IMG/VR virus record: IMGVR_UViG_3300046352_000133 | Coordinates: 1 to 57,253 of that record | Length of the DNA stretch: 57,253 bases | From: a virus | Lineage: Duplodnaviria; Caudoviricetes | Reading direction: 5' to 3' (one strand) | Shown: positions 27,747-55,722 of the stretch, piece by piece | Layout of the letters: each line of letters opens with the position of its first letter | How positions within the stretch are numbered: position 1 is the stretch's first letter | Notes under the pieces: model-generated | Told to the model about the DNA's origin: nothing | The model's database searches: none | What the model saw: only the letters and a program-made list of their open reading frames with translations | Made by a program: the position numbers and the translations under genes

Positions 27747-30700
27747 ATGTCTGTAATTAAAAAAACCCTATTTGATGAAAAGCTAGAAAAAGTAAATGTA
27801 TTAATAAATGATACAGATGCTAATAGTAAGTATTTCAAAATAACCGAACTTAATGATACATTTACTGGCGGTAAAAATGCATTCCTTATTCAAGGTTCTG
27901 AATATTTGGTAAGTGATACTATAATCAAAATCCAAATAAAAGATGCAAATGGTAATACTATTTATTATGAACCAGGAGAAGGTATGGTTTCCTCTTCTGT
28001 AAATGGAGAACCGTTTGTATCAGAATATTATGAAGGAACATCAAAAGTAGTTTCGGTTTACATCTACCCAAACAAAACAATAGATACAAATGGCAATCCA
28101 TCGGATGGAACTGCATTTGGACCTGCTACGATTACCATATTAGGTGAATTAAAAGAATACGAATCAAACGGATTAGTATTACCAATTCCACCCGAATGGG
28201 AGGGGCAGTATAGTGTAAAATGGACAAGAACGGTAAATATAAATCCATCATTACCGAATGTTACAAAGATTCGTTTTTACAAAAGACCAACTGCAACTAT
28301 TAAAGAATTGTTGCAACCATTGTATAGTATTGATGGTGGTACTGGATTAAAAGTAGATTCTGGAATAAGTCAATCATTTGCTCAAATAAACCTTTCCAAT
28401 TTAGAAACATTTGCAGGTGATGTAAAAAGAGTAAAAGTTTTTAGAACATCGCAAGGTGATATTTCTGATTACGATTTAATACAAGATGTTTTATTAGAAT
28501 CAAAAGAATTACTAACTACATATGGGTTAAGTGGTAGTGTAATTGGAGAAACAGGTATATTTACATCGGAAACTTTACAAAATTATTGGAATACAGGTTC
28601 TTTAAGAGCAGAACTTACTTCAAGTAGAATAGAAAGTGGATTAAAATTATCAGGTAGTGGTATATTTGCATATACTCAATCATTAGATTTAAGTTCTACC
28701 AATACATACGAATTAAATTTAGATGCATTTTATTCATCATCTGTAAGTTCTAATTTAGGAATATATTTAAGTTATACTACTGAATCAAAAACAGTTAGTA
28801 GTAGTATTGGAACTTTATATGGATTAGCACCAACAAAAAACCTTTTAGATACAGTAATACCATTTACTATTGGAAGTAATTACCCATCTGCATCTTTATA
28901 TTTTTCTCAATCAAGAGGAGAATGGCATTTAGGTAATATAAGTTTAAAACTATCAGAGGATACGGCATTCTCACCAGATAGTGTTTCGTTTATTACAACG
29001 ATGCCAACTATATTAGGAAATGATTTATTTAATTTTAAATTTGAGTTTTATGATTTAAATAACAACTATGTTCCGGTATTTGTAACTCAAAGTGCAACAT
29101 TCGTTGGTAGTCAAAGAGCAATAAATACGGATGCAATTATAAGCGCATCACTTTCACAATCATTAGATGCTTTGTATAAAGTATCATCTTCTATTAGTGG
29201 AACAATGACTACATACAGTTCATCAGCTAGTGGTAGTATTACAGTAGTTAGTGGTTCTGTATTTAGTTTAAGTGGTTCGGTAAGTACATCAGTATTACTA
29301 TTAACTGGTTCAATTAGTTCATCATTATCATCTTCATTTGGATTTACAAGTAGTTCCGTTTATACATTAAGTGGTAGTGTTAGTTCATCATTATCATCGT
29401 TGAGTTCATCCGTAAGTCAAAGTATATATCAAGGATTATTACCCGCATTTACAAAAGTTCAACAATTAGCAGATGGTAATTATAGTGGTTCATTTATAAG
29501 TGGTAATATAATTTACGCACCTGTAATAGGTGGCCAGTTAGGATATTTTAGTACGTTATTTAAAGTTGGACAATCACCTAATTCAATTTATTTAGATGCA
29601 AGACAAACTCCTAGAAAAATATTCATAGGTGGGGTAGTACCAGGTGGAGGAGATACGGAATCATCAGGAGCATACAATAATACAAATACATCTGTTTACT
29701 TAGATAGTGCAGGTCAATTCTCATTAGGTAATAAATTATCATATGATGGAACAAACTTATCAGTAAATGGAACTATAAATGTAACTGGTGGTGATGCGGC
29801 AACTGATGCAAATGCTTTATTATATTCACAAAGAGCAGCTGCTTCGGCATCAATATCGGCATCAACTGCATATACAAGGTTACAATCTTTGGCAGATGGT
29901 GGATATAGTGGCTCGTTTATAGGTAGTACAACCATTTATTCTCCAAATATTGGTGGACAAAACGGATACATTTCAAACATATTAAAAGTTGGACAAAATG
30001 GTATAACATTAGATGGTGGTAATAGAAAAATATATGTAGGAACAGGAACTTATGGAAATGCAAATACTCCATTTTATTTTGCATCAGGTTCTACAAATGT
30101 ATTTTCATTAGGTGATAAACTTACATTTGATGGAAGTAATTTAAGTGTTAATGGTAATGGAACATTTAGTGGTAATTTATCAGCAGCAGGTGGTTCATTT
30201 ACCGGAACATTGGTTGCAGCGGGTGGTTCATTTTCAGGACAAATAAGTGCAGCAAGTGGGCAAATTGGAGGCTGGACAATTGATAACTCTTCAATATATG
30301 TTCCAAATGCAATTTCATTCAACTCTTCTGCAAAAACTATAACAATTTCCGAATCAAGTGGAACACCTAGAATATTAATCAATCAAAATACTTCATTTAG
30401 TTCTTTGACTGCGGGTTCTCCATCAACCGTATCCGCTGGAACTACTGTTAATAGTGGTGTGTATTCATTTGGTGATTATGATAGAACATTAGGAACGATT
30501 GCAACCGTTAGTGGTAGAAGTTACAATATTACAAGTACATTTACTGCTACAAATGGTATAAATGCTATAACATTGAGTGCGGGTGCATATTCAATTAGTG
30601 TATATTCTAAAATTATAATAGATAATGGTGTAACTACTATTGAAGTTGCACAAGAATCAGATGGTGTATCTGGTTACAATACTACGGCAACATGGAGTGC

Positions 30701-31328
30701 TATAAATGGTGCAGTTCATAATTCAACTCTTACGGGTAATGGAAATACTTGGACAGTAATTCAAAGATTTTCAATGAACATTATGGGTGCACCTGGTGGT
30801 ACATATGCTTCATCATATACCCAACCTGCGGTTAGTGTAACAATGGCAGGGGCAAACTCATTTGTTGAAATTATTGCAGGTGGTATTCAAGTTGGTAGAG
30901 ATTCTGCAAACTATGTAATTATGGATAGAACTGGTACTAATCCTATGTTGCAAGTTGGTGGAGATGGTACATTTACAGGTGATGTAACGGCAAATACTTC
31001 GGATAGACGATTAAAGAATAATATTAGAGTAATAGATAATCCATTAGAAAAATTATCAAAAATAAATGGTGTATATTTTAATTGGAATGATGTTGCTAAG
31101 GAATTGGCAAATAAAAGTGATGTTGAAGAAGTTGGATTTTTAGCACAAGAAGTTCAATCTGTATTACCACATATTATTAAACCTGCTCCTTTTGATATTG
31201 ATACAAAAACAGGAGAATCTAAAAGTGGTGAAAATTATCTGACAATTCAGTATGAAAAAATAGTTCCATTATTAGTGGAAGCAATAAAAGAATTAAAAAA
31301 AGAAATTGACGAATTAAAGAATAAGTAA
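27747..31328 (+). CDS. Tail fibre/spike with C-terminal intramolecular chaperone (peptidase S74)
   Basis: Ser/Gly-rich fibre repeats, GQIGGWTI, then SDRRLKNNI...GVYFNWN...[12 protein letters not shown]...[15 protein letters not shown]. Confidence 0.88.
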
Positions 31329-32755
31329 TGGCATTACCACCATCGGGAACAATTAAAATGTCGCAAATAAAAGCTGAATTGAGTTCAACATCGAATTCAT
31401 TGAGAGCATATAACGTCATTGCAAAAGCTGCTACATCTAATGTAAAATTTGATGCTCCTGATAAATTAAGTGATTTTTATTCGTATTTAAGTGGAACTAC
31501 AACTACAACTGTTACACCAACCGTAACACCTACTCTAACACCAACAGTTACACCAACGGCTTCACCAACTACAACTATACCACCATTAACTATAACAAAT
31601 AGTGGTGTAACTTGTTCTGGTGCACTTGGTGCATTCACTTCAACAATTGCAGGGGGCAGTGGTACATATAGTTTTATTGCAATTGCAACCTCACAAGCAG
31701 ATGCATCTAACGCGGTTAATGATATTAGTGGTACAAGATATTCAGTATCATCTAATCCATATTTATGGACTAATATATCAAACGGTACTTATTATGTTGC
31801 GGTAAAAGATTCGTTGGGTACGGTAACGGTTCAAGGAGCATCAGTAACAGTAAATTGTATTCCACCAACAGTTACTCCAACAGTTACACCAACTGCAACG
31901 CCTACTTTAACACCTACTCTAACACCAACTATTATACCAACGGCTTCTCCAACTACAACTATACCACCATTGACATTATCAAATAGTGGTGTAACTTGTT
32001 CTGGCGCAGTAGGTTCGTTTACTTCAACAATCGCAGGAGGTACTGAAACATATAGTTTTATTGCAATAGCAACTTCTCAAGCAAATGCAGATAATGCAGT
32101 AAAAGGAATTAGTGGAACAAGATATTCTATATCACAAAATCCATACCCTTGGAATAGTATTTCAAATGGTACTTACTATGTAGCGGTAATGGATTCGGCA
32201 GGAACTGTTACAGTTCAAGGTGCATCGGTAACAGTAAATTGTATTCAGCCAACTGTAACACCAACTGCAACACCAACGGTTACTCCAACAGTTACACCTA
32301 CGAATACACCGACTGTTACACCTACGGCTACACCAACGGATACACCAACTACTAGTACCACTACGGCTACACCAACTGTAACACCAACTGCAACACCAAC
32401 GGTTACTCCAACAGTTACACCTACGAATACACCGACTGTTACACCTACGGCTACACCAACGGATACACCAACTACTAGTACCACTACGGCTACACCAACT
32501 GTAACACCAACTGCAACACCAACGGTTACTCCAACAGTTACACCAACGGCTGCACCAAATGATTGCCAACAATATAATTTGTATAATGGTGATAGTCAAT
32601 ATTCAGATTTTTATACTTATCAGTCTTGTGATGGGAATTGGAATTACGATGTTGAATTACAATATAGTGGGTTTGTATATATTTGTGCAAGAACTGGAAC
32701 AGTTAGTGCAGGTGGTGCAATAGATGTAAGTGCTGCACTAGGTGCATGTTCATAA
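31328..32755 (+). CDS. Mucin-like Thr/Pro-rich virion protein with two Cys-flanked beta domains
   Basis: N-terminus [18 protein letters not shown]...LSDFY, typical of genes following S74 fibres; three (PTxT)n tracts; two ~128-aa repeats ending GTYYVAV.DS.G...VTVNC; Cys-rich C-terminus. Confidence 0.8.
31553..32245 (+). repeat. Diverged direct duplication, period 384 bp (128 aa)
   Basis: ccaacggcttc(a/t)ccaactacaactataccaccatt at 31553 and 31937; both copies end acagtaaattgtatt. Confidence 0.85.
32249..32544 (+). repeat. Perfect tandem repeat, 123-bp unit, ~2.4 copies
   Basis: Units start at 32249, 32372 and 32495 and encode [41 protein letters not shown]. Confidence 0.92.
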
Positions 32756-32786
32756 TACAAATATACTAATTAAAAATAAAAAAGTT

Positions 32787-33758
32787 ATGAAAAATTTAAG
32801 ATTTATATGTGCTCAACCTGCTATTACTTATTACGTTTGGCAAGTTGAAACTATGATAAACAATTTTATGGAGATGGGTATAAACCCTAATCAAATTGAT
32901 ATTGTTTGTAGTATTGGAGATGATGGGATTCCATCGGATTGGTCAAAATTGGCTAATAGGTATCCCGCAAGATTTCTTTTCTATAAAGATATTCGTGTAA
33001 CTAAACACTATGTTTCATCTATCAGACCTAATATACTTAAACAACATTGGTTAAGATTTCCTGAATTAAAAGATGAAGTAATTCTTTATCACGATTGTGA
33101 TATACTTTTAACAAAACCACCTAAAGATTGGATTACCGAAGAAATGCTTACTGATGATAATTGGTATGGTAGTGATACAAACTCATATATTTCTTATGAT
33201 TATATCAAAGAAAAAGGTGATGATGTATTGGACTTAATATGCACAATAGCAGGCATTAGCAAAGAACTACTTAAAGAAAATAATCTAAATTGTATAGGAG
33301 CTCAATATCTTATGAAAGGTATTACTAATTGGTATTGGGAAAGAGTTGAGTTTGATTGTGAATTAATGTTCAAATATGTTACTGAATTAAATAATCAAAA
33401 AATTATTGAGGATAGAAGAACAATGCCACCCGAAGAAGACAGAATACCATACCACCCTTTACAAATTTGGTGTGCCGATATGTGGGCGGTATTATGGGGA
33501 GGTTGGAAAATGGGAAAGAAAACAATTTGCCATCCTAACTTTGAGTTTAGTTGGGGAACACATAGTGAAGATGATTGGAATAAGTTTAATATATTTCACA
33601 ATGCAGGAGTTTTAAATACTATGGATGAACTATTTTACAAAGGTAATTGGATGAATGAATTACCATATGGTAAGGAGTTAAATATTAAAGAAAATACAGC
33701 ATCATTAAAATATTGGGAATGGGTTAGTAAAACGGGAACTACATCATGTTTGATTTAA
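32787..33758 (+). CDS. GT-A glycosyltransferase resembling GT95/GT96 peptide O-glycosyltransferases
   Basis: YYVWQ near the N-terminus, YVSSIRPNILKQHWL, DxD (HDCD), IGAQYLM, WCADMWA and IFHNAG. Start placed at ATG 32787 after the A-rich leader. Confidence 0.6.
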   Translation: MKNLRFICAQPAITYYVWQVETMINNFMEMGINPNQIDIVCSIGDDGIPSDWSKLANRYPARFLFYKDIRVTKHYVSSIRPNILKQHWLRFPELKDEVILYHDCDILLTKPPKDWITEEMLTDDNWYGSDTNSYISYDYIKEKGDDVLDLICTIAGISKELLKENNLNCIGAQYLMKGITNWYWERVEFDCELMFKYVTELNNQKIIEDRRTMPPEEDRIPYHPLQIWCADMWAVLWGGWKMGKKTICHPNFEFSWGTHSEDDWNKFNIFHNAGVLNTMDELFYKGNWMNELPYGKELNIKENTASLKYWEWVSKTGTTSCLI

Positions 33759-34741
33759 GACCTATATTTTTTTATTGGGATGGGTTTATTCATTCGGATA
33801 GATTACAAATATTAAAAGATTGCATATATTCAACAAGATTATGGAATCCAAAACACAATATAGTTTTAATTTCAAATAATTTAACACAAGACTTATTTGA
33901 TGATAGATTTGCAATAGAAGTTCGTAAATGGGATAAATCATTTTTTAGTGGATTACCTATACCTGAAGAGAAATTAGATAAATACATTAATTCACATCCT
34001 AGAGATTTTAGTGATTTATTTAGATTAGTTCTACTATATCAATTTGGTGGTAGTTACATCGATACTGATGATTTAGGTATTAAGGCAATATCGGATACAC
34101 CAAACTTAATTTGTAGAAGTTATGACCCACATACATCATTTTATTCTAAAATAGATGCAGATGGTTGTGTGCCAGGTTGGACAAGAGAATTAAGAGGATG
34201 GGATAACATCAATATGTTTCCACGCAATGATTGTTGGCATAACTTTGAACCTAAATCTGAATTCATAAAAGATTTACTTTGGAATGATAACTTCTTATCT
34301 AATAAGGATATTGTTTCTATATGTGGAGAGTTAAGTTGGCAAGGTTTAACTAATGATACTTGCATTAAAAGATTAGAAGGATTTGGAACGGAATGGAACT
34401 TTGGTTTAACTTTACTTTATTTATTTGAAGATTTTATATCAGTAAGTTCACAATGGGATAGATGTGTATTAGGTGGGGAAATGTGTGAACTATGGAAAAA
34501 ATTACCAAATGTAAACGATTACGATTGGGGGTTTTATAAATGTAAACGGGATGATGCATTAGAATTTTATAATATAATATATAACTTATACCCAAATCTT
34601 TCACATATGTGGCTTCATCATAAAAATGAAAAAGCTGAGTGGATGTTAAATGAATTAGATGAGGATGGTTTATATTCAGTTTCTACTTGGATATATTGGG
34701 ATATAAAACAAAAAATAAAAAAATATGAGCGAAAAATGTAA
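33746..34741 (+). CDS. Glycosyltransferase, GT32/Och1-like DxD family
   Basis: IFFYW, CIYS...NP and SDLFRLVLLYQFGGSYIDTD. Confidence 0.85.
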   Translation: MFDLRPIFFYWDGFIHSDRLQILKDCIYSTRLWNPKHNIVLISNNLTQDLFDDRFAIEVRKWDKSFFSGLPIPEEKLDKYINSHPRDFSDLFRLVLLYQFGGSYIDTDDLGIKAISDTPNLICRSYDPHTSFYSKIDADGCVPGWTRELRGWDNINMFPRNDCWHNFEPKSEFIKDLLWNDNFLSNKDIVSICGELSWQGLTNDTCIKRLEGFGTEWNFGLTLLYLFEDFISVSSQWDRCVLGGEMCELWKKLPNVNDYDWGFYKCKRDDALEFYNIIYNLYPNLSHMWLHHKNEKAEWMLNELDEDGLYSVSTWIYWDIKQKIKKYERKM

Positions 34742-35351
34742 ATTTTCAATAATAATACCTACAATGTGGTGCAGTGATTTAATTTTTAAATTATTGGATT
34801 TACTAAACGATTCCACATTTGTTGGAGAGATAATACTAATTGATAACGATAAGTCAAAGAGACCATCTCAAATCAATTCTACAAAAAAACTAAGAATCAT
34901 AGAGCAAGAAAAAAACATTTATGTCAATCCTGCCTGGAATTTAGGTGTTGAATTAGCGAATTATCCAAACATTTGTATATCGAATGATGATTTAGTTTGG
35001 AATGTACAAATACTCCCTATTATTTTTGAAAACATACATTTAGGAATTATAGGACAAGCTACATCAAATTACTTTGAAGGAGATACTGAAATAAAAATAG
35101 AAGCTATTACTGAAAGGAATTGCGGATGGGGATGTTGTTTTTTTTTACATAAAGATAATTGGATTCCAATACCTTCAGAACTTAAAGTTGCGTATGGTGA
35201 TGATTGGTTAATTAGTAAAATAAAACCATATCAGATAAGTGGAACAATGGTAGAAACAGAACCACACCCGTGGGGATTATCTCGTACTGCAAGTAAGAAT
35301 GAATTTGTAGAAATATCATTTAGAGATGAGGAGGCATTTAAGAAATTATGA
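34725..35351 (+). CDS. Glycosyltransferase family 2
   Basis: FSIIIPT, EIILIDN, NIYVNPAWNLG, ISNDD and GDDW. Confidence 0.85.
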   Translation: MSEKCKFSIIIPTMWCSDLIFKLLDLLNDSTFVGEIILIDNDKSKRPSQINSTKKLRIIEQEKNIYVNPAWNLGVELANYPNICISNDDLVWNVQILPIIFENIHLGIIGQATSNYFEGDTEIKIEAITERNCGWGCCFFLHKDNWIPIPSELKVAYGDDWLISKIKPYQISGTMVETEPHPWGLSRTASKNEFVEISFRDEEAFKKL

Positions 35352-36034
35352 TTTCAGTTTTAACATTAACATACCAAAGAAAAGATTTATTAGAAGAAGC
35401 AATATACTCATTTCTAAATCAAAATAAATTAGAAAATGCTGAAATGGTAATAATAAATGATTCACCAATAGTAGAATATCGAATAGATAATCCAAAGGTA
35501 AAAATAATAAATCTAAATAAAAGATTTAGTTCTGTTGGAAAAAAATTAGAATGGGGATTTACTCAATGTAATGGTGATGTAATATATCGTTTAGATGATG
35601 ATGATTTACTTACACCTTGGGCATTAGAATTACAAAGAGAATATCATATTGATTCACCTGCTAGTGATATATACCGATGTCAAAAACATTATTTCTTTTC
35701 TAATAACCACTATGAAGGAATTTCCGATTCTGTAAATAATGGTAATGCATATAAAAATAAATGGATTAAAGGAATTGATATTATTGATAAATCTATTGGT
35801 GAAGATAATTGGCTAACGTTTCATACAAATGCCAATATACATATAGGAGATAAAGGTAGATACTCTATGATTTATAGGTGGGGTATGGGTGTATATCATA
35901 TATCAGGAATGGGTGACAGACCTAATGAAGAAATATATAAAAAAACTGATGAATCTAATAAAGAGTCTGGTGTAATATATTTAGAACCAAAATTTAAAGA
36001 AGAATATTGGTCACAATTACCACATTTATTTTAA
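35348..36034 (+). CDS. Glycosyltransferase family 2
   Basis: ISVLTLTYQR, EMVIIND, GDVIYRLDDDD and GED. Confidence 0.88.
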   Translation: MISVLTLTYQRKDLLEEAIYSFLNQNKLENAEMVIINDSPIVEYRIDNPKVKIINLNKRFSSVGKKLEWGFTQCNGDVIYRLDDDDLLTPWALELQREYHIDSPASDIYRCQKHYFFSNNHYEGISDSVNNGNAYKNKWIKGIDIIDKSIGEDNWLTFHTNANIHIGDKGRYSMIYRWGMGVYHISGMGDRPNEEIYKKTDESNKESGVIYLEPKFKEEYWSQLPHLF

Positions 36035-36074
36035 TAAAAACACCCGTTTTGTTGTAAATTAAATAATTATAAGT

Positions 36075-39209: not shown

Positions 39210-39212
39210 AGT

Positions 39213-39244
39213 TTTGTAAATATAGATTTTTTTTCGTATATTAG
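39213..39244 (+). promoter_or_regulatory. Bacteroidota-type -33/-7 promoter
   Basis: TTTG (39213-16), 20 nt, TATATTAG; preceded by TTCG as at 23173. Confidence 0.6.
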
Positions 39245-39272
39245 TGTTACTTTATAACTTATTCATTAAAGC

Positions 39273-40908: not shown

Positions 40909-40924
40909 CTAAAATAATAAAGTT

Positions 40925-43807: not shown

Positions 43808-43809
43808 TT

Positions 43810-45971: not shown

Positions 45972-45979
45972 AAGGTTAT

Positions 45980-46951: not shown

Positions 46952-46952
46952 T

Positions 46953-47489
46953 ATGAGTTCAAATTGGAAAGAGTTTGAAATAACTCCATCAAAGAAATTC
47001 CGAAACGAAGTAGAAACATACACACCATCAATTTATAGAGAATACAGAGGTGAGATATTTACAACATTTCATTCAGAGGAACATCCTGTAATGTTAAAAC
47101 TTGCACCATATGTTTCAGTACATGGGAGATTCTCTCGTTCTTATAAAGGAGTATTGAGAGGATTACACTATGATACTAAAACTTGGAAGTTAGTTCAAGC
47201 AGTAGTTGGAGATATATACCTCATTGTTTTGGATGTAAGAGAAGATTCTCCTACTTATGGAGATTGGGAATCATTCATTATATCTGAACGTAACAGACAA
47301 CAGGTATTAGTTCCTCCTGGGTTCGCAAATGGTCACTTTGCACTTACTGATTGTATGTTTCATTATAATTTATTTTACGATGGACAGTATGTGGATGCAA
47401 ATGAGCAAGGTGTAATCAAATGGAATGACCCCGAGTTTCAAATGGAATGGCCTAATAATCACCCAATTTTACAAAAAAGAGATAGATGA
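46953..47489 (+). CDS. rmlC: dTDP-4-dehydrorhamnose 3,5-epimerase family (RmlC cupin)
   Basis: RG.I, SRSYKGVLRGLHY, KLV....G.IY...LDVREDSPTYG.W, VPPGFANGH and IKWNDP. Confidence 0.9.
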   Translation: MSSNWKEFEITPSKKFRNEVETYTPSIYREYRGEIFTTFHSEEHPVMLKLAPYVSVHGRFSRSYKGVLRGLHYDTKTWKLVQAVVGDIYLIVLDVREDSPTYGDWESFIISERNRQQVLVPPGFANGHFALTDCMFHYNLFYDGQYVDANEQGVIKWNDPEFQMEWPNNHPILQKRDR

Positions 47490-48121
47490 TACAAAACATA
47501 AAAAAATACAAAACTTTAGATGAGGTAGATACCAACCTCACATCACAAGATTTAATCGATTTTGAAAATGGAATAGTAGAGCAATGGGAAGGTGGTAAAA
47601 TACGAGGACCTATACATTTATCAAATGGAAATGAAGAGCAACTAATAGAGATATTTAAAAGAATATCTGCAAACGATTGGGTGTTTTCAACTTGGAGGTC
47701 TCACTATCATGCATTATTACATGGTATTTCACCTGAATGGATTACAAACGAAATATTAGATGGCAAATCTATCACTCTTTGTAATTTAGATGAGAAGTTT
47801 TATTCATCCGCAATTGTAGGTGGAACGTTATCTATTGCATTGGGTGTAGCAATGGGATTAAAACAAAAAGGAAGTGATGAGAAAGTTTGGTGTTTTATAG
47901 GAGATATGTCTTTTGAAAGTGGTATATTCTATGAAGTTCACAAATATGCAAGAAACTTTGATTTACCTATTTATTTTGTTATTGAAGATAATGATGTTTC
48001 AACTTACACTCCAACGGAAGCAACTTGGAGTACAAAAAGAGAAATACCAAAAGATGTAATTTACTACAAATATAAATCTAAATATCCACACTACGGAAGT
48101 GGTAAATGGGTAGTTTTTTAA
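47486..48121 (+). CDS. TPP-dependent enzyme, E1-alpha-like subunit (short form)
   Basis: GKIRGPIHLSNGNE, STWRSHYHAL, SAIVGG and TPP motif GDMS.ESG...EDN. Confidence 0.88.
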   Translation: MIQNIKKYKTLDEVDTNLTSQDLIDFENGIVEQWEGGKIRGPIHLSNGNEEQLIEIFKRISANDWVFSTWRSHYHALLHGISPEWITNEILDGKSITLCNLDEKFYSSAIVGGTLSIALGVAMGLKQKGSDEKVWCFIGDMSFESGIFYEVHKYARNFDLPIYFVIEDNDVSTYTPTEATWSTKREIPKDVIYYKYKSKYPHYGSGKWVVF

Positions 48122-48122
48122 T

Positions 48123-49313
48123 ATGTTATACAATTCGGAATTAAATAGTTTTAAAAGGTTTATATCAGAATGGGATATTGATTCCGAATATGTTTTATTC
48201 GGTGCTAGTAAGGAGTGTGTCCAATTCATTAGAACTATGGACTTCTTATTTGGTTCTGAAAAATTAAAGATAAAATGTATTGTAGACCATAGTGTAAAAA
48301 CTGGTATTGCAAACAATCTAAATGAGGTAAGTGAATATTACCACCAATCAAAAGATTTTAATAATAGCAGAACCAATATACAATTGGTAAACATAAATGA
48401 TTTTGATAAACAAGGGGATGTTATTATAACAACTGATGAGTTTAGAAAAAATTATCAAATCTATTTAGAAGAGCACAAAATAAAACACACTTGGTATAAA
48501 AACATTGCTGCTATCTGGCCGTATGATTATCTAAACAAAGTTCATATATTCCAAAGTGATGTATTAGTAACGGAGAAATGCAACTTAAATTGTTCTCATT
48601 GTAATATGTTTATTCCACACTTTGAAATGCCAAAACATAGAGAGTTAGATACGATGATAAAAGATATTGATTCTTATTTCAATATCGTTGATTATGTTAG
48701 TGTATTTCATTTAGTAGGGGGAGAGCCATTTTTACATCCACAAATTGAAAATGTTATTCAACATATTTTATCAAACTACATAGATAAAATTGACAAGTTT
48801 ATAATAACAACTAACGGTAGTATTGCTCCCAAACCATCTACAATTGAATTACTAAAGAGTAGTAATGTGATTTTGAGTGTAAGTAATTATTCAGATAAAT
48901 TACAAAAACTAAAAACTAAAGTTGAAAAAGTAATTGGTATTTACAAATCAAATGGTATCAAACACTATGTTAGAAATGAAATAGAGTGGTATGATTTTGG
49001 TGATTTAAGAGTTAAAAAGAATCTACCAACAGATAAACTAATCAAACACTTTGATTCTTGCACTGCTCCATTTAGAGGATTAAATGATGGTAAATTTTAT
49101 TACTGTCATTTAAATACGGGTGCAGTTTTGACAAAGTTATTCCCATTAGATAAAAACGATTATGTTGAAATAGATAAAATATCAAAAGAAGATTTACTTA
49201 AATTTGATTTAGGATATACTGATTTAGGATATATTACTTTTTGTGATAATTGCAATGGTTGTAATACAGGAATTAAAATACCTGTAAGTTATGAAAAGCA
49301 AGGGGTAAGATGA
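48123..49313 (+). CDS. Radical SAM protein with N-terminal Rossmann-like segment and C-terminal Cys cluster
   Basis: VLFGAS; CNLNCSHC, VGGEPFLHP, TTNG; C-terminal C...GKFYYC...CDNCNGC. Confidence 0.88.
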   Translation: MLYNSELNSFKRFISEWDIDSEYVLFGASKECVQFIRTMDFLFGSEKLKIKCIVDHSVKTGIANNLNEVSEYYHQSKDFNNSRTNIQLVNINDFDKQGDVIITTDEFRKNYQIYLEEHKIKHTWYKNIAAIWPYDYLNKVHIFQSDVLVTEKCNLNCSHCNMFIPHFEMPKHRELDTMIKDIDSYFNIVDYVSVFHLVGGEPFLHPQIENVIQHILSNYIDKIDKFIITTNGSIAPKPSTIELLKSSNVILSVSNYSDKLQKLKTKVEKVIGIYKSNGIKHYVRNEIEWYDFGDLRVKKNLPTDKLIKHFDSCTAPFRGLNDGKFYYCHLNTGAVLTKLFPLDKNDYVEIDKISKEDLLKFDLGYTDLGYITFCDNCNGCNTGIKIPVSYEKQGVR

Positions 49314-50725
49314 TAATAGTTGATATAGATAATACACTTGCTAACAATTTAGATAGATACAAACTAGCAACTAACTCTGATGGTACTATAAATTGGGATG
49401 TGTTGTATGATTACAATAATGTTATATTAGATAAACCGATTCAATATATAATAGATTCTGTTAAAATATGGAAACGTTTGGGGTATAGAGTTCTTTTATT
49501 TACAAGCAGACCAGAACAAATTAGAGAGGCAACCGAATATTGGTTAAACAAATACGATGTTCCATATGACGAATTACATATGAGAAGTATTGAAGAACAC
49601 TATATTAAAGATACAGAATTAAAAAGAAAAATGCATGACAAATTTGTAAATGAAGAAGTTTTATTTGCAATAGATGATAAGCAGGAAATAATAGATTTGT
49701 GGGAGCAATTGGGAATCAGATGCTACAAAGTAGATTCAATAGAATACCATACGGATTTATTATTGGAAGAAAAAAATTGGGAAAATCCTAAATCATTAAA
49801 AGAATTAGGATACATTTATTTTGGACCTTTATTATTTAATTATTTTGCTTGGTTAAAATCCGAATTAAATGGATGTGATAAAGTTTTGTTTAATTCAAGA
49901 GAAGGTTTATTTTTATTAGAAATTTACAATATATTTAAACAAAAATTTGATTTACCGGATGGGGTTTATTTTAAAACATCACGCAAACTTTCATTGGTAG
50001 CATCTCTTTTTAATAAAAACGATGTCTATGATTCTTTTAAATTACATAGATACAAAGGTAAATTATCCAATCTATTAAAAGATAGATTTAATATTATAGC
50101 AAGTGAATCCGATGTTGAAGTAGATACTCATATTGAATTACCAGATTTAAGTTTTTGTATGAATCAAATATTGCAAAAAGCAGAAGATACACGAAAACAA
50201 TATGGTGAATACATTAAGAGTATTATGGCAGATTCTAAAAATGTAGTAATGGTTGATAGTGGTTATCAAGGAACTACTCAACAAAATATAGAAAAAACTT
50301 ACAAATTAAAATTTAAAGGTAGGTATATAATTTACAAAAGTAATAATCTGTTAGAAGATGTAAAAGGTTTATATGATTTTAAAAAGTCTAAATTAAAAGA
50401 AAATTTAATTTTTTTAGAATCCGTATTCATAGATAGAGTAGGCAGTTATATTGATATTATAAATGGAGAATTTAAAAACGAAGAAATAAATAAAACACAT
50501 AAACACTTTGAAGATAAAATAGAAATAATAGAAGGTGTTAAACGTTTTGTTTTAGATATGTTAAAATTTGATATTGATACAAATAATGTTTCTTATCAAA
50601 AACCTGCTTATATATTTGATTTAATGTGTAACAAAGATTTTGTAAAAAACGATGTATTGTTTGAAAGTTTTTATCACGATAATTTATATGTTAGAGAAGG
50701 AGTAAAACGAATAGAAAGAAAATAA
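49310..50725 (+). CDS. HAD phosphatase (PNKP-like) fused to a polysaccharide-locus-type domain
   Basis: DIDNTLA, FTSRP, WL..Y.VPYDELHMR, AIDD; second domain FGP...LFNSREG...TSR...VDSGYQGTTQ. Confidence 0.75.
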   Translation: MIIVDIDNTLANNLDRYKLATNSDGTINWDVLYDYNNVILDKPIQYIIDSVKIWKRLGYRVLLFTSRPEQIREATEYWLNKYDVPYDELHMRSIEEHYIKDTELKRKMHDKFVNEEVLFAIDDKQEIIDLWEQLGIRCYKVDSIEYHTDLLLEEKNWENPKSLKELGYIYFGPLLFNYFAWLKSELNGCDKVLFNSREGLFLLEIYNIFKQKFDLPDGVYFKTSRKLSLVASLFNKNDVYDSFKLHRYKGKLSNLLKDRFNIIASESDVEVDTHIELPDLSFCMNQILQKAEDTRKQYGEYIKSIMADSKNVVMVDSGYQGTTQQNIEKTYKLKFKGRYIIYKSNNLLEDVKGLYDFKKSKLKENLIFLESVFIDRVGSYIDIINGEFKNEEINKTHKHFEDKIEIIEGVKRFVLDMLKFDIDTNNVSYQKPAYIFDLMCNKDFVKNDVLFESFYHDNLYVREGVKRIERK

Positions 50726-50726
50726 T

Positions 50727-52136
50727 ATGGGAGCAGTACACGGTCATAATTTTAAATTGGTTTATACGGATTGGTTTATTGCACATAATCAACTAAAACC
50801 ATTTGGTAATGGGATACATCCTATTATTAGAGAATTTGTTCAAGATGTATTTAAAAGAAATTTAAATATAAATTGGTTTGATATGTTGCAATACCAATAT
50901 GAAGAAAAAGCATTTAAGTTTGACCATTCGGAATTGATAAATTATTTTACAAGAAACTATCCAAATAATATATTATCTTTAAATCAAATCAAAGATGATA
51001 ATTCTATTTACATATACCCATTAGAAATAAAAGCAACACTTGGTGCATTGAATGATGAAAATGGATTCGTATTAAATGATGTAAAATATAAGTGGTATTT
51101 AAAAGATATAATCCCATCAGAAATTATAGAATATGCTAAATCCGGTAAAGTAAAAATTTTAATCAATATAATCCATGACCCATTATACGATGATAATAGC
51201 ATAAGAAAATTTGAATTACAAATGAATGAATTTGGAATAGATGGTTCAAATATTATATTTTTAGGTGGTAGTAATTTTTCAGAGTATTATGATAAACACC
51301 CAAGTAGTAGTGTAAAAATATACAATGGACATTTATTTATAAGAGGATATGCTGATGAAATAAATTCATTTCCAATGATTGGTAATTTGGGATATTTGTG
51401 TGAATTGTTTGAAGAAAAAGATTTGGATTCTACTAAAATTAGAAAACATAAATTTTTATCTCCAAATAGAACAATGGAAAAAGTACAAAGAACCATGTTA
51501 GGGTATTTTGCATTAAAATATGAATTTTTAAATGATGGATTATTTACATTTATACAAAAACTACCAAAAGATAGATTGAGTAGTATAGTAAAACAGGTGT
51601 ATGATGATACGGTTGAAAATATAGAAAAATACACATCTGAGTTAGAGTTGATGTTACCATATGAAGATGATACAACAGACGTACCAGCTGATAAAAAACA
51701 ACAATTTGGTGTTAGAAATAACAAAAAAGAATGGTACGAAAATTCATATTTTCATTTAGTTACAGAAACATTTTTTGGACCAAATGTATTTCTTTCAGAA
51801 AAAATATTTAAACCAATATCAAATCTACAACCATTTTTAGTATTTGGTGATTATTTAACTTTGGCAGAATTAAAAAAATTAGGATTCAAAACATTTGAAC
51901 CATTTATAGATGAGAGTTATGATTTGGAAAAAGACCCAAAGAAAAGAATGTTACTTTTAGAAAAAGAACTAATTAAATTAAAAAATATGCCAATAGAAGA
52001 ATTACATAATTGGTATTATTCAATAACTGATATATTATTACACAATCAAAAACACATATATACATTTGAAAACTATGAGTGTTTTGATGAAATATTTGGA
52101 AAAATAAAAATAGATTATACACAAAAACTAATATAA
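50727..52136 (+). CDS. Hypothetical glycan-island protein, possible GT-B/GT10-like C-terminus
   Basis: FLSPNR, SYFHLVTET, FLSEKIFKPI...QPFLVFG, LKKLGFKTFEPFIDESYD and LLHNQ. Confidence 0.6.
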   Translation: MGAVHGHNFKLVYTDWFIAHNQLKPFGNGIHPIIREFVQDVFKRNLNINWFDMLQYQYEEKAFKFDHSELINYFTRNYPNNILSLNQIKDDNSIYIYPLEIKATLGALNDENGFVLNDVKYKWYLKDIIPSEIIEYAKSGKVKILINIIHDPLYDDNSIRKFELQMNEFGIDGSNIIFLGGSNFSEYYDKHPSSSVKIYNGHLFIRGYADEINSFPMIGNLGYLCELFEEKDLDSTKIRKHKFLSPNRTMEKVQRTMLGYFALKYEFLNDGLFTFIQKLPKDRLSSIVKQVYDDTVENIEKYTSELELMLPYEDDTTDVPADKKQQFGVRNNKKEWYENSYFHLVTETFFGPNVFLSEKIFKPISNLQPFLVFGDYLTLAELKKLGFKTFEPFIDESYDLEKDPKKRMLLLEKELIKLKNMPIEELHNWYYSITDILLHNQKHIYTFENYECFDEIFGKIKIDYTQKLI

Positions 52137-52137
52137 A

Positions 52138-53139
52138 ATGGAATTTAAAGGAAAAACGGTTTTAATTACCGGAGCAAATGGATTGGTAGGATTACCCGCA
52201 GTTAAAAAATGTTTAGAAGAAGGTGCTGATAAAGTATATGCAGTAGACCTTAAATTTAGTGAAAATTTAGAATTTTTACAAAAACAATATCTACACGGTA
52301 AATTAACATTGATAAAAACCGATTTAACTTATTTATCACATTGTGAAGAATTATTTACAATGGATAAAATTGATATTGTATTACACATAGCAGGGGTTAA
52401 GGGTTCACCTGCAAGGTCTTCAACACAACCTGCAGATTATCTATTCCCAATGTTGATGTTTAATACCAATATGATTAAAGCATCATTTGATGCCAAAGTT
52501 GATTGGTTTGTATATCTTTCATCGGTTGGAGTTTATAAGCCAGCAGATGTAATGAATGAAGAGGATATTTGGTCACAAGAAGAAACTTGGGCATCAACTC
52601 CATCTCGTTTAGATTGGCATCCAGGTTGGACAAAAAGAATGGGTGAATTAACATTAGATTCTTTAAGAGTTCAGTACGGTTGGGATAATTGGACTGTAAT
52701 TAGACCTTCTAACATCTACGGAACAAACGATAATTTTGCACAAGATGCAACTGTAATTTCTTCTAACATTTGGAAATTATTCAATGTAGAAGGTGAAGAG
52801 ATGGTTTGTTGGGGAGATGGTTCATCAAAAAGAGATTTTGTATTTGGAGATGATGTAGCACAGGCATCTATTGATGTGGTTAAAAAAGAAGTTAAAGATA
52901 TTATAAACTTTGGATGTGCAGAGGCAGTAACAATTAAAGATACGATTGAAACAATTGTTGAATGTTACAAAGAAATCACAGGTAAAACAAAAGTTATAAC
53001 TTGGGATTCTACAAAAACAAACGGAGATGCTATTAGATGTTTAGGTTCTAAAAAACAAAAACAATATGGAATCTTACCACAAACTACATTAAAAGAAGGA
53101 TTAACAAAATCAATTTTAGAATATAAAAGTAGATTATAA
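52138..53139 (+). CDS. Extended SDR, GDP-L-fucose synthase-like, lacking the canonical catalytic Tyr
   Basis: ITGANGLVG, RPSNIYGTNDNF and WGDGSSKRDFVF; PGWTK in place of YxxxK. Confidence 0.85.
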   Translation: MEFKGKTVLITGANGLVGLPAVKKCLEEGADKVYAVDLKFSENLEFLQKQYLHGKLTLIKTDLTYLSHCEELFTMDKIDIVLHIAGVKGSPARSSTQPADYLFPMLMFNTNMIKASFDAKVDWFVYLSSVGVYKPADVMNEEDIWSQEETWASTPSRLDWHPGWTKRMGELTLDSLRVQYGWDNWTVIRPSNIYGTNDNFAQDATVISSNIWKLFNVEGEEMVCWGDGSSKRDFVFGDDVAQASIDVVKKEVKDIINFGCAEAVTIKDTIETIVECYKEITGKTKVITWDSTKTNGDAIRCLGSKKQKQYGILPQTTLKEGLTKSILEYKSRL

Positions 53140-54182
53140 TGAAACATATAGTAGTATCGGGATGTTCATTTACAAATAATTTTAGAATTAATATTGGGGA
53201 TGAAAGACGGTGGGAAAGAGACCCAATTCAAGATTGGACTTGGGCACATTGGTTGCAAAACTCGTTAAAGAAAACACATGAATTACATAATTACGCAACA
53301 GTAACTAATGATAATAAAACCATTGCTCGTTCTATTATTTACAAAGTTTCGGATTTATTAAAACAAGGTGTAGACCCAAATGATATATCAGTAGTTGCTC
53401 AATGGACAACTTTAACTAGGAATTCATTTTTTATTTCACCAGAAAAATATCAAAACGATAAAAACCCATCAAATAGTTATATTAAAAACCGCGATAGTTG
53501 GGCACATACTTGTGATTATTTAATAGGTGGTAAGGATAAATCTTCGGAATATTCAGAAGGTTATTTTCATTTAACTGGTGGATTTAATCCAACCAATAAT
53601 CCTTTAAATATAGACCCTGTTGTGTTTGAGTGGTTTGATAAAGTTATGTCTAATGATGAGCGATATTTGGAATGGTTTGAGTATATTTTATTATTACTTA
53701 GTTTTTTAGAAGTAAATGGGATTACAAAGATAAAGTTTTTTAATATGAGTAACAACTTTTCTAAAAATTATTTAAGAGAAGGTAAAACTCCACCATTCTA
53801 TAATACACCCGTAGATAAATCAGTATATGAGTGTATAGTTACAAATAGAGATATATGTAATACTTGGGAACAAAAGGAATTGGAATTTGATAATGCTTAT
53901 GTAAAAAGTTATGCAGATAAGATAAATTTTAGTAAATATTTTTGGTTTTTTGAAGAAAATTCCGTATCTTTGTACGGAGGAATTATAGAATGGAGTATTA
54001 GAAACTTTAATTCTGAATTAGAGACTGATAATCTACCAAAAGTTTTATGGAGAGAAATGAATGGTATGAGTATTGATGAACAAAGCGCATATTTAGAAAG
54101 AAGTTGGTATGGACACACATCATCCATATTAGCACACAAATTTGTAAAAGATGTAGTATTAAATTGGAATATTTTTAATTAA
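53139..54182 (+). CDS. SGNH-hydrolase-like protein
   Basis: VSGCSFT, NYA....DN, AQWT...R, GGIIEW (shared with 38346) and C-terminal GH. Confidence 0.55.
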   Translation: MKHIVVSGCSFTNNFRINIGDERRWERDPIQDWTWAHWLQNSLKKTHELHNYATVTNDNKTIARSIIYKVSDLLKQGVDPNDISVVAQWTTLTRNSFFISPEKYQNDKNPSNSYIKNRDSWAHTCDYLIGGKDKSSEYSEGYFHLTGGFNPTNNPLNIDPVVFEWFDKVMSNDERYLEWFEYILLLLSFLEVNGITKIKFFNMSNNFSKNYLREGKTPPFYNTPVDKSVYECIVTNRDICNTWEQKELEFDNAYVKSYADKINFSKYFWFFEENSVSLYGGIIEWSIRNFNSELETDNLPKVLWREMNGMSIDEQSAYLERSWYGHTSSILAHKFVKDVVLNWNIFN

Positions 54183-54187
54183 AGAAA

Positions 54188-55180
54188 ATGAAAAAAACAG
54201 ACAAAATTTTAGTTACGGGTGCAAGTGGATTTATTGGTTCACATTTATTACGGTTGTTACACCTAAAAGGTTATACAAATTTAAGAGCAACATCTTATAG
54301 TAGAAATTTAAGACATGATTTTGATGGTAGCAGAGATATTCCTTTTTTTAAAGGTAATTTACAGGATGCTAAATTCTGTCAAGAAGTCTCAGAAGGAGTT
54401 GATGTAGTATTTCATTGTGCAGCAAACACATCAAATGCATTAGATACTAAATTCAATCCATTATTACACGTTACACCAAACGTAGAAATGAATGTAAATT
54501 TAATGGAACAAAGTTGGAAAAACAAAGTTCGTAAATTTTTATTTATTTCATCAAATACAACTTATCCAGATATGGGTACTGAATTTTGTACCGAAGATAT
54601 TGACGTTCATGCAACTCCAATGTTACCTGTTTACAAAGCAGTTGGTGGTATGAAGAGATATGGTGAAATGCTATGTGATTTCTTTTCTAATCAGATTCAC
54701 GAACCGATGCAATGTTTGATTGTTAGACCTTCAAACGCATTTGGACCTAATGATAAGTTTGATTTTGAAAAGTGCCACGTTACTCCTGCAAACATTCGTA
54801 AAGTAGCAGATGGGTTGAATCCAATTCCAGTTTGGGGTGATGGTACGGAAGTAAGAGATTTATTGCATGTTGAAGATATGGCAGATGGTTTTATCTTTGT
54901 AGCAGAGAATAACGATACATATGACATCTTTAATGTATGTTATGGTGAAGGATTTACAGTAAATGAAACACTTGAAACAATTAAAGAATTAGATGGTAAT
55001 ACCAATCCAATTGAATATGTAAATAATAAAGCACCAATGATTCCTATCCGATTATTATCTTCTAAAAAGATTAATGCATTAGGATGGAAACCAAAAAGAA
55101 ATCTAAAAGAAGCTTTAAAAGAAACCATTGAGTGGTATAAAGCACATAAAAGAGAATTTAACCCAAATTCAAAACCATAA
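54188..55180 (+). CDS. Extended SDR, GDP-L-fucose synthase-like, lacking the canonical catalytic Tyr
   Basis: VTGASGFIG, HCAA, RPSNAFGPNDKF, HVTPA and WGDGTEVRDLLHVED; VGGMK in place of YxxxK. Confidence 0.87.
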   Translation: MKKTDKILVTGASGFIGSHLLRLLHLKGYTNLRATSYSRNLRHDFDGSRDIPFFKGNLQDAKFCQEVSEGVDVVFHCAANTSNALDTKFNPLLHVTPNVEMNVNLMEQSWKNKVRKFLFISSNTTYPDMGTEFCTEDIDVHATPMLPVYKAVGGMKRYGEMLCDFFSNQIHEPMQCLIVRPSNAFGPNDKFDFEKCHVTPANIRKVADGLNPIPVWGDGTEVRDLLHVEDMADGFIFVAENNDTYDIFNVCYGEGFTVNETLETIKELDGNTNPIEYVNNKAPMIPIRLLSSKKINALGWKPKRNLKEALKETIEWYKAHKREFNPNSKP

Positions 55181-55722
55181 TGAGCACACCTCAATTTTCT
55201 CCATACAAAGATGAACTAACAAAAGCAATGACATTTCTTGCTCAAAAAGAAGATACAATCTTTATTGGACAACAAATAGTTTATGCGGGAAACCCTATGA
55301 GTACAACTTTGGGGGAAGTTCCAAAAGAAAAAATGATTGAAGTTCCTGTGATGGAAGAAACGCAAATGGGAATGAGTTTAGGAATGGCAATGACGGGTAA
55401 AACCGTCATTACCTTTTATCCTCGTTGGGATTTTTTAGTATCGGCAACAAACCAATTGGTAAACCACGCTGATAAGTTTGAAAATATGACAGGTAAAAAG
55501 GCAAACATCATTATTAGAGTTGGTGTTGGTAGTACAAACCCATTAGACCCTGGTATCCAACATAGAAACAATTATACAAAAGAATTTAAATCTATCTTAC
55601 AATTTACAAAAATTTGGGAATTAAAAAATCCAAATGATATTTATAAGATATACACAGATGCGTATAACGAAGGTGGGGTTCACATTATAGTAGAATGGCC
55701 TGGATTATACTACGAAAACTAA
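55180..55722 (+). CDS. TPP-dependent enzyme, E1-beta/transketolase pyrimidine-binding domain only
   Basis: FIGQ, IEVPVMEETQMGMSLGMAMTG, ATNQLVNH, IIIR and GIQH; 180 aa, so the C-terminal domain is absent. Confidence 0.88.
   Translation: MSTPQFSPYKDELTKAMTFLAQKEDTIFIGQQIVYAGNPMSTTLGEVPKEKMIEVPVMEETQMGMSLGMAMTGKTVITFYPRWDFLVSATNQLVNHADKFENMTGKKANIIIRVGVGSTNPLDPGIQHRNNYTKEFKSILQFTKIWELKNPNDIYKIYTDAYNEGGVHIIVEWPGLYYEN

Follow-up and report, generated by a model that had tools for sequence, protein, structure and literature searches.

Does a phage that carries a long run of sugar-related genes directly behind its tail fibre gene decorate its own particles, or does it alter the surface of its host? 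This question is raised by positions 27747-55722 of the IMG/VR record IMGVR_UViG_3300046352_000133 (Caudoviricetes), the entirety of which, 57,253 nt, was analysed and is referred to here as the window. The window has a CheckV completeness of about 24% and a GC content of about 0.30, and every long open reading frame (ORF) lies on the plus strand, to which all window coordinates below refer. An earlier note on this DNA had described a tail fibre, a protein with (PTxT)n tracts and a series of co-oriented, mostly abutting genes, and had read them as one soluble pathway for virion O-glycosylation that runs from acceptor to tailoring. The gene arrangement was borne out, with 23 further ORFs following the PT-rich protein (32742 to 55722), all co-oriented and mostly overlapping or abutting. 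The pathway reading was supported for the first part of the region, module A, which comprises the PT-rich protein, a glycosyltransferase (GT) of the GT-A fold and a GT32-GT2-GT2 cassette (31328-36034), and where the pairing of the GT-A enzyme with Ser/Thr-rich genes and the solubility of the proteins support it; as a single integrated pathway of 24 genes it was not supported. The island is a mosaic of at least two independently mobile modules. We consider it likely that module A carries out cytoplasmic O-glycosylation of virion proteins, while for the mosaic as a whole, with modules B and C (36075-55722) included, the chances of a virion-directed function appear evenly balanced.

The PT-rich protein and the adjoining glycosyltransferase

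The tail fibre gene (27747-31328) encodes 1193 aa with a C-terminal Peptidase_S74 chaperone domain (Pfam PF13884, E 1.9e-14), and twelve of its 18 PHROG matches were annotated as tail fibre or baseplate. It is followed by the PT-rich protein (31328-32755, 475 aa), which was identified by translation and a tract scan as a candidate O-glycan acceptor and consists of 35% Ser+Thr and 10% Pro. Three (PTxT)n tracts at aa 54-90 (31487-31597), aa 178-217 (31859-31978) and aa 306-410 (32243-32557, with 53 Thr) together hold 87 Thr and 5 Ser, 92 Ser/Thr residues in all, and separate an N-terminal domain, two copies of a domain of about 90 aa bracketed by Cys, and a Cys-rich C-terminal domain. The tract DNA is composed of tandem arrays of 12, 24, 123 and 384 nt, and among the window proteins extended PT tracts occur in this one only. 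Relatives of the protein were found at the same position in four loci (L007, L010, L022, L042). No match was obtained among cultured phages by tblastn with either the whole protein or aa 1-181, and a word-indexed search with the N-terminal 60 aa returned only three relatives, none of them named.

The next gene (32787-33758) encodes a soluble protein of the GT-A fold that is the candidate priming enzyme and belongs to phrog_4417 (PHROG E 1.8e-59), a family annotated as 'unknown function'. Its start was placed at ATG 32787 rather than GTG 32742, because homologues begin at the former. An AlphaFold (AF2) model built from a 30-sequence alignment had a predicted local distance difference test (pLDDT) score of 95.5 and gave 181 Foldseek matches in the PDB at E<=0.001, led by WbbM, the UGGT catalytic domain, glycogenin and LgtC at E 1e-6 to 1e-5, template modelling (TM) scores of about 0.4-0.5 and 7-13% identity. 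The GT95/96 label of the earlier note was not reproduced, and no GT95/96 structure was among these PDB matches. In BFVD the best named match was Orf49 of Lactobacillus phage LP65 (TM 0.69), and the matches also included giant-virus GT8-like proteins, at TM of only about 0.4-0.5. An H102-D103-x-D105 motif was invariant in 30/30 aligned homologues and is probably the catalytic DxD. Sequence profiles gave no assignment, with no Pfam family at E<=5, Glyco_transf_8 or similar included, and no hit at E<=10 when the 30-sequence profile was run by hmmsearch against PDB sequences. The enzyme thus shares its predicted fold and a DxD-type motif with the retaining GT-A enzymes of GT8 and GT24, among which glycogenin and UGGT use protein acceptors, and differs from them in sequence-profile membership and in the TM of about 0.4-0.5. 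On the evidence of the model it is a separate, unnamed family with a GT8/GT24-type fold.

Pairing with Ser/Thr-rich proteins

Relatives of the GT-A enzyme were found in 331 IMG/VR stretches, of which the best 80 were examined and 75 had an upstream gene. With Ser/Thr-rich defined as S+T>=0.27, the upstream gene was Ser/Thr-rich in 58 of these 75 loci, against a background of 4.7% of 1072 ORFs from GT-A loci. The upstream proteins formed 24 clusters by sequence and had several N-termini unrelated to one another; many contained pure Thr runs. Twenty representatives of the clusters of genes downstream of the GT-A gene included five GTs, four methyltransferases and one radical S-adenosylmethionine (SAM)/SPASM protein.

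The same pairing was present in cultured phages, where tblastn gave 77 records with a GT-A homologue at 27-34% identity, and six were examined. All six had T-run proteins near the homologue, annotated as capsid, tail-tube or major-tail proteins except in Chryseobacterium phage MA9V-3, in which the protein is unannotated. In five (phiFL1A, PMBT8, phiCTP1, Iacchus and MA9V-3) the T-run protein was encoded directly upstream of the GT-A homologue, and in the first four of these it is an annotated major tail or tail tube protein, that of phiFL1A being the major tail and that of phiCTP1 the tail tube. The PMBT8 protein includes a run of 16 Thr, and in phiFL1A Thr runs also form the end of the major head protein. 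VPE25 has such runs in two proteins, the major tail protein, encoded 2 kb away, and another one encoded upstream. Mycobacteriophages were absent from the organism tally of these tblastn matches, and no description of poly-Thr tags paired with a phage glycosyltransferase was found in the literature searched.

A radical SAM/SPASM gene was located directly after the GT-A gene in six relatives (L007, 10942-12027; L008; L010; L019; L038; L042) and directly before it in one (L057, 7074-8114). Many of the poly-Thr proteins in the loci bearing such a gene end in Cys-rich domains. The radical SAM/SPASM enzyme could therefore be involved in peptide cross-linking of the same poly-Thr proteins.

A self-sufficient cassette

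The GT-A gene is followed by a GT32-like glycosyltransferase with a DXD sugar-binding region (33746-34741; Pfam PF04488, E 7.5e-7) and two GT2 glycosyltransferases (34725-35351, Pfam PF00535, E 4.8e-6; 35348-36034, PF00535, E 9.5e-15). All four genes recur at 84-92% aa identity in G003, a 32.7-kb record with terminal repeats that is rated complete, the GT32-like enzyme being 89% and the two GT2 enzymes 92% and 87% identical in the order given. In G003 they follow a different PT-rich protein (S+T 0.38, 103 PT/PS-type dipeptides) and share a gene run with portal and tape-measure-like genes, and the sugar-synthesis proteins of the window had no homologue anywhere in that genome. Judged by its gene content, the module A of G003 is complete by itself and is a self-sufficient cassette.

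The case for virion protein glycosylation by module A is a good one because of the GT-A enzyme itself, its broad pairing with poly-Thr structural proteins and the occurrence of the self-sufficient cassette in a small phage. In the mechanism that we propose, the GT-A enzyme would work in the cytoplasm, independently of a lipid carrier, and attach the first sugar to threonines within the (PTxT)n tracts of the PT-rich protein encoded beside it; the GT32-like and two GT2 enzymes would then extend the glycan from host nucleotide sugars.

Some points count against such a function. The PT-rich protein is assigned to the particle by its gene position only, and PT tracts can serve as plain linkers, such linkers being common in multidomain proteins. 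An alternative would have no protein glycosylated at all, with the PT tracts as flexible linkers and the transferases acting on DNA bases, a small molecule or host glycans. Phage transferases that glucosylate DNA are indeed well known (cited in PMC12619734), and the fold matches of the protein at 50727-52136, described below, include the T4 alpha- and beta-glucosyltransferases at Z of about 6. Pairing of the GT-A gene with Ser/Thr-rich genes at twelve-fold over background, across 24 unrelated upstream clusters and in phages of Firmicutes too, argues against this alternative, and no hydroxymethyl-base pathway gene was present in the window, which is only about 24% of the genome. We regard it as very unlikely.

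Gene content of modules B and C

Gaps and overlaps between the genes of the island were at most 63 nt except for a single gap of 226 nt (40876/41103). Module B begins, in close relatives, with a protein of no known family (36075-37058), a homologue of which was present in 29/79 module-B loci and which in relative L090 is located directly after the fibre gene at 88% identity. Two more proteins without assigned function follow (37027-38349 and 38346-39209), the former belonging to a virus-only family with weak local similarity to 50727. The conserved core of module B consists of a SAM-dependent methyltransferase (39273-40031; Pfam PF13578, E 6.3e-11; 75/79 loci), a protein with a weak GT2-like hint (40028-40876; Glyco_tranf_2_4 at E 0.02, below cutoff; 78/79 loci), a GT7-type glycosyltransferase fused to a ConA-like Laminin_G_3 domain (42401-43807; Pfam GT7N and GT7C; 79/79 loci) and an N-terminal-twitch radical SAM enzyme (43810-45225; NCBIfam NF033640, 341 bits against a cutoff of 170; 72/79 loci). 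Between the second and third of these is a further GT7-type (GT-A) glycosyltransferase with a C-terminal extension (41103-42404; Pfam PF13733 for GT7N and PF02709 for GT7C), which is a full-length paralogue of 42401 and has 231 relatives in IMG/VR. The twitch enzyme is followed by a protein with no family (45204-45971). A contig from a metagenome-assembled genome (MAG) titled Bacteriovoracaceae (L182, 3131-15025) carries eight paralogous genes for the twitch radical SAM enzyme, seven of them arrayed in tandem and the eighth on the opposite strand.

Module C includes an extended short-chain dehydrogenase/reductase (SDR) of the nucleoside diphosphate (NDP)-sugar epimerase/dehydratase/reductase type (45980-46951; Pfam PF01370, E 7e-36; below all equivalog cutoffs), an RmlC-like NDP-4-keto-6-deoxyhexose 3,5-epimerase (46953-47489; Pfam PF00908, E 1.4e-34; 113 bits against TIGR01221, below the cutoff of 155.75) and the TPP-binding, alpha-like half of a split E1-like thiamine pyrophosphate (TPP) enzyme (47486-48121; Pfam E1_dh, E 7e-16; phrog_34187 positions 4-197). 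These are followed by a second radical SAM protein (48123-49313; Pfam PF04055 and Fer4_12), a HAD phosphatase joined to a 320-aa domain of no assigned function (49310-50725; Pfam HAD_PNKP, E 9.6e-19), a member of a virus-only family (50727-52136), an extended SDR resembling GDP-fucose synthase (52138-53139), a protein with no family (53139-54182), a third extended SDR (54188-55180; Pfam PF01370, E 9.8e-45) and the pyrimidine-binding, beta-like half of the TPP enzyme (55180-55722; Pfam Transket_pyr, E 9e-7; phrog_34187 positions 238-400). Both TPP halves thus map to one 405-position profile, phrog_34187. The HAD phosphatase and the 320-aa domain, a single ORF in the window, were two genes in L090 and L173.

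The earlier note's list of enzymes was upheld in part. Three SDRs, RmlC, the split TPP enzyme, the methyltransferase, two radical SAM enzymes and the HAD fusion have support from Pfam, PHROG and NCBIfam, and its GT32-like, GT2 (34725, 35348) and two GT7 assignments were recovered by Pfam, while 40028, which it had counted as a GT2, reached only E 0.02. Its two SGNH-like proteins were not recovered, as no such family matched 36075, 38346, 45204 or 53139 at E<=5. A GT4-like enzyme of the GT-B fold, which it had also proposed, came down to fold matches of 50727. This protein has at least 931 relatives, none named; its AF2 model (pLDDT 72) had OtsA as best Foldseek match (E 4.5e-4, TM 0.27), and VIA gave Z 6-7 (best 6.9) to the C-terminal domains of GT-B enzymes. 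Because these matches are weak and under the bar of Z 8, 50727 is called only tentatively a GT-B-like glycosyltransferase. In the ESM Atlas both 37027 and 50727 were placed in virus-only clusters, with GT10 as the nearest named cluster at 0.79-0.80, which is a lead only. Searches with phmmer against PDB sequences gave no matches for 36075, 37027, 38346 and 40028, and for the island ORFs without a family Pfam at E<=5 returned only sub-threshold hints.

The RmlC-like epimerase together with three SDRs indicates NDP-4-keto-6-deoxyhexose chemistry, and since no dehydratase or nucleotidyltransferase was assigned, the precursors may be supplied by the host. In the proposed scheme modules B and C would together make up a further system, tied to the fibre gene. 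Of the two, module B would contribute a methyltransferase, two GT7-type transferases, one of them with a lectin-like domain, and the twitch radical SAM enzyme, and module C would make unusual NDP-sugars from a 4-keto-6-deoxyhexose by means of RmlC, the three SDRs, the TPP and radical SAM enzymes and the HAD phosphatase. The split TPP enzyme could add a two-carbon branch to an NDP-4-keto sugar, by analogy with the split enzymes AviB1/AviB2 and Pau11/Pau12 of branched-chain octose biosynthesis, for which attachment of a C-4 acetyl branch from pyruvate has been proposed (PMC4753412). Like AviB1/AviB2, the phage proteins are encoded by two ORFs, one E1-alpha-like and one E1-beta-like, among deoxysugar genes that include RmlC and SDRs; unlike them, the two halves lie 7 kb apart in the window, and the likeness is one of analogy rather than of tested homology.

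Mosaic structure of the island

The closest backbone relative of the window, G002, is a 176-kb record that is 92% complete and has identities to the window of 86% for the primase, 82% for SbcCD and 82% for the fibre N-terminus. It keeps the fibre, a poly-Thr protein, the GT-A enzyme and a radical SAM/SPASM gene. The 22-kb island is absent from G002, because the homologue of 55881, the gene on the right flank of the island, is located only 1.8 kb after the GT-A gene and RmlC was found nowhere in the record. The 130-kb record G001, with an SbcCD 48% identical to that of the window, has the order fibre, poly-Thr protein, GT-A and radical SAM/SPASM gene, followed by island homologues in nearly the order of the window (36075, 39273, 40028, 41103, 42401, 43810, 45204, 45980, 46953, 47486, 50727 in three copies, 52138, 54188, 55180 and 55881). 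In L090 a fibre 71% identical to that of the window is directly abutted by the island from 36075 on, at 49-88% identity, and a 23-kb contig (L173) has almost all of the island genes from 36075 through 54188, arranged as in the window. L173 and three other contigs (L174, L191, L194) carried the island at 57-85% identity and had a GC content of 0.27-0.30. The MAG titles of their bins name Candidatus Pelagibacterales/Pelagibacter and Flavobacteriales; they are probably phage contigs that were binned by composition, and the hint as to host is ambiguous.

A scan with the 41103 GT7 returned the 231 IMG/VR relatives mentioned above, of which 79 loci were examined; the same protein was unmatched by tblastn in cultured phages. 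Of the 66 loci whose sequence extends at least 7 kb downstream, 20-24 had the module C genes (SDR 45980, RmlC and TPP alpha), and different downstream genes were seen in other loci. In 47/62 module-B loci an S74-type fibre end was found on the same strand no more than 3 kb upstream, and in none was one found downstream; PHROG confirmed the fibres in L099, L124 and L149, and the stop codon of the fibre gene and the start codon of the island often overlap. Ser/Thr-rich ORFs at or after the start of module B numbered 0/720. The best explanation for these patterns is that the region behind the fibre gene is a hot spot in which independently mobile sugar modules are stacked.

In about 35 module-B loci a fixed trio of genes is located between the fibre gene and the methyltransferase (L099, 6346-8257; L124, 4663-6546; L108, 6319-8219), encoding proteins of 175-183 aa, of 152-163 aa with S+T of about 0.3, and of 284-290 aa with a DxD-like motif. 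The last of these was considered as a diverged GT-A enzyme equivalent to phrog_4417, and the idea was dropped when hhalign and BLASTP showed no similarity.

One explanation of the region has all 24 genes building a single complex glycan on the PT tracts, with module A priming and modules B and C elongating and tailoring it. The window and G001, which are diverged genomes, both have module A next to B/C and in the same order, and the genes are co-oriented and tightly packed. The lectin-like domain of 42401 could moreover hold an already glycosylated tract, by analogy with the polypeptide GalNAc-transferases. The independent mobility of the modules and the completeness of module A alone in G003 argue otherwise, and co-location is to be expected in any case at a hypervariable spot. 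One integrated pathway therefore appears distinctly improbable.

Membrane and regulatory signals

The earlier note had also seen no flippase, Wzy/Wzz, ABC exporter, undecaprenyl-phosphate transferase or obvious transmembrane GT, and the family and hydropathy searches agree. No segment of the membrane-helix type was found in the 49 window ORFs by a Kyte-Doolittle 19-residue scan, with 45980 and 47486 just reaching the threshold in their Rossmann and TPP folds, and no Pfam or NCBIfam match in the window belonged to a transporter or ABC exporter, flippase, Wzy/Wzz, ligase or phosphoglycosyltransferase family.

Regulatory signals did not exceed chance. The T4-type late promoter word TATAAATA was not enriched in the window (16 occurrences against 19.9 expected), and for this reason one copy located 47 nt before the fibre start was not counted as a promoter. 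The same held for sigma-70-like sites (144, with 137 in shuffles) and for terminator-like sites (3 against 5.5). From the fibre gene to 46900 there was no terminator-like site on the plus strand.

Target of modules B and C

Since relatives carry modules B and C without the GT-A enzyme or the PT-rich protein, the target of these modules would be either virion proteins or the host envelope. We favour the former, and their product would most likely also be placed on particle proteins, the glycan of the PT-rich protein or the fibre, before lysis. The argument for this is positional and draws on the location behind the fibre, solubility and the missing carrier machinery.

A number of observations weigh against it. 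Whether PT-rich genes accompany the island in related phages was examined, as the earlier note had suggested, and they, or other Ser/Thr-rich genes, do accompany its first GT (58/75) as described above; among the module-B loci with at least 8 kb upstream, the GT-A gene was found in only 1/54 (absent from 53/54) and a homologue of the PT-rich protein in 0/54. An ORF with S+T>=0.27 lay within 3 kb upstream in only 31/62 module-B loci, and a run of six Ser/Thr within the same distance in only 8/62. The earlier note had held that relatives with the island and without Ser/Thr-rich structural proteins would speak against a glycan coat, and L090 comes close to being such a case, as its fibre is joined directly to the island and it lacks the PT-rich protein, the GT-A enzyme and the three-GT cassette. 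Seven ORFs or domains of the island are without assignment, and neither a nucleotidyltransferase nor a clear 4,6-dehydratase was recognised in it by Pfam, NCBIfam or inspection of SDR motifs. The lack of membrane segments is weak evidence, because O-antigen glycosyltransferases are often soluble too. The bacterial homologues of the twitch radical SAM enzyme (36-44% identity, mostly from Bdellovibrionota) are located in loci for exported polysaccharides that hold an ABC-2 exporter, GT1, GT2, a DegT aminotransferase, SDRs and a carbamoyltransferase. From this company the enzyme probably acts on sugars, and the island may derive from surface-polysaccharide pathways. Similar islands in pelagimyophages and cyanomyophages have, in the parts of the reports drawn on here, been interpreted as modifiers of the host O-chain (PMC7029224, the pelagimyophage host recognition cluster of Zaragoza-Solas et al. 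2020; PMC12801897, the cell-wall gene sets of S-SCSM2R and P-SSM2).

In an alternative explanation the roles would be split, with module A glycosylating the PT-rich protein and modules B and C remodelling the O-antigen or capsule of the host during infection by way of the host lipid carrier, flippase and ligase, so as to block superinfection or change recognition. That modules B and C travel without the GT-A enzyme or the PT-rich protein, that the bacterial twitch homologues are accompanied by an ABC-2 exporter, that RmlC, SDRs and GT2-like proteins are an enzyme set typical of O-antigen clusters, and that the published interpretation of glycan genes beside tail fibres is of this kind (PMC7029224, PMC12801897, as far as drawn on here) are all in its favour. 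Yet the phage island has no such exporter, and Pfam, NCBIfam and hydropathy found no priming phosphoglycosyltransferase, flippase, polymerase or ligase in it either. The fixed same-strand position behind the fibre would suggest co-expression with the fibre, and the published host-modifier interpretation was itself deduced from annotation. On balance we find a division of roles rather unlikely.

If virion-directed glycosylation is followed to its full extent, a bacterial virus would carry a 'mucin', a fibre-associated protein whose threonines, some 90 in number, bear a dense coat of O-glycans added in the cytoplasm independently of a lipid carrier. The GT-A enzyme would prime a complex glycan, which would come to contain branched and methylated 6-deoxy sugars made by the TPP and radical SAM enzymes of the phage, and many unrelated phages would use the GT-A family on poly-Thr tags. 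This picture is a tentative one that we hold to be doubtful as a whole; glycan-coated virions have so far been measured only in mycobacteriophages and giant viruses.

Other genes in the window

The left half of the window encodes gp25- and gp6-like baseplate genes and large structural proteins (PHROG, Pfam), together with endonuclease I, a primase and an SbcCD fusion. The baseplate protein has its best cultured relatives in Microcystis phage Mel-JY01 and Flavobacterium phage immuto, along with an uncultured 484-kb phage, at 39-42% identity, and megablast of 19 kb of the region against cultured phages found nothing at the nucleotide level. A protein of the IscA/HesB type for the assembly of iron-sulphur clusters (369-701; Pfam PF01521, E 3e-17) could provide clusters for the two radical SAM enzymes of the island. 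Also present are a UvdE UV-damage endonuclease (739-1635) and a peptide deformylase (2180-2821), the latter an enzyme that, in the part of the report drawn on here, is listed in the pelagimyophage core (PMC7029224).

A NodU/CmcH-type carbamoyltransferase (3759-5462) is located 28 kb upstream of the island. Its homologues (28-37% identity) adjoin twitch radical SAM genes in three Bdellovibrionota loci (L176, L184, L190), of which L184 and L190 are polysaccharide loci, and the gene may functionally be part of the island.

At the right end, a nucleotidyltransferase-like gene (55881-57251, open at the contig end; Pfam CTP_transf_like, with weak matches to NMN-adenylyltransferase models in NCBIfam) is a conserved flank and was excluded from the island count. 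It was considered as the nucleotidyltransferase of the island and rejected, since it is conserved in the island-less G002 and its weak matches are NMN adenylyltransferases. A small 'kinase'-labelled ORF at 1637-1975 is weakly paralogous to its N-terminus, with 25% identity over 149 aa (E 6e-4).

Relation to known systems and significance

Chloroviruses and mimivirus, with its fibrils, use virus-encoded cytoplasmic GTs and nucleotide-sugar pathways to decorate capsid or fibril proteins without the secretory machinery of the host. These are eukaryotic viruses, and the matches of the window GT-A enzyme to giant-virus proteins are at the level of fold only. In mycobacteriophages the virion glycans are found on the C-termini of capsid and tail-tube subunits (PMC12619734, citing Freeman et al. 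2023). The present system resembles theirs in its phage-encoded soluble glycosyltransferases and in that the GT-A homologues of phiFL1A, PMBT8, phiCTP1 and VPE25 adjoin capsid or tail-tube-type proteins with poly-Thr C-termini. It differs in that the acceptor candidate of the window is an internal, mucin-like (PTxT)n protein next to the fibre, and in that it belongs to an aquatic phage of roughly 240 kb with an extra 22 kb of sugar synthesis and tailoring genes.

The host recognition cluster of pelagimyophages and cyanomyophages, as set out in the passages drawn on here, is likewise a hypervariable region in which tail-fibre genes are combined with cassettes of glycosyltransferases, deoxysugar enzymes and radical SAM proteins, and its cassettes are gained and lost between relatives, as they are here between the window, G001, G002, G003 and L090. 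Those passages make no mention of a GT paired with poly-Thr proteins, and the window has gp25- and gp6-like baseplate genes whose best cultured relatives are Mel-JY01 and immuto, at about 40% identity, rather than the T4-like pelagiphages. Phage virion glycosylation, in mycobacteriophages, and glycan islands beside fibre genes, in aquatic myophages, are thus already known from these sources. What is new is the pair of an unnamed GT-A enzyme and poly-Thr proteins, coupled here to a mucin-like PT-rich protein, the make-up of the island, with two or more modules that move independently of each other, and the wide occurrence of module B as a fibre-linked core.

The GT-A family and its poly-Thr tags form a directly testable enzyme-substrate pair with homologues in cultured phages of Enterococcus, Staphylococcus, Lactobacillus and Clostridium, and the island is a source of soluble enzymes for unusual sugars, such as the split TPP and twitch radical SAM enzymes, and of tools for carrier-free protein glycosylation. 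If virion proteins are the target, sugar-coated phage particles would be common in nature rather than a curiosity of mycobacteriophages, with relevance to adsorption, stability, escape from recognition by hosts or grazers, and sticking to mucus or exopolymers. The 'LPS-like auxiliary genes' (lipopolysaccharide-like) beside the tail fibres of marine and freshwater phages would then have to be read differently. Should the 'mucin' picture prove true, those of the host recognition clusters of aquatic phages would become virion-glycan genes, and glycan-coated virions would be a widespread and highly diversified trait of phages.

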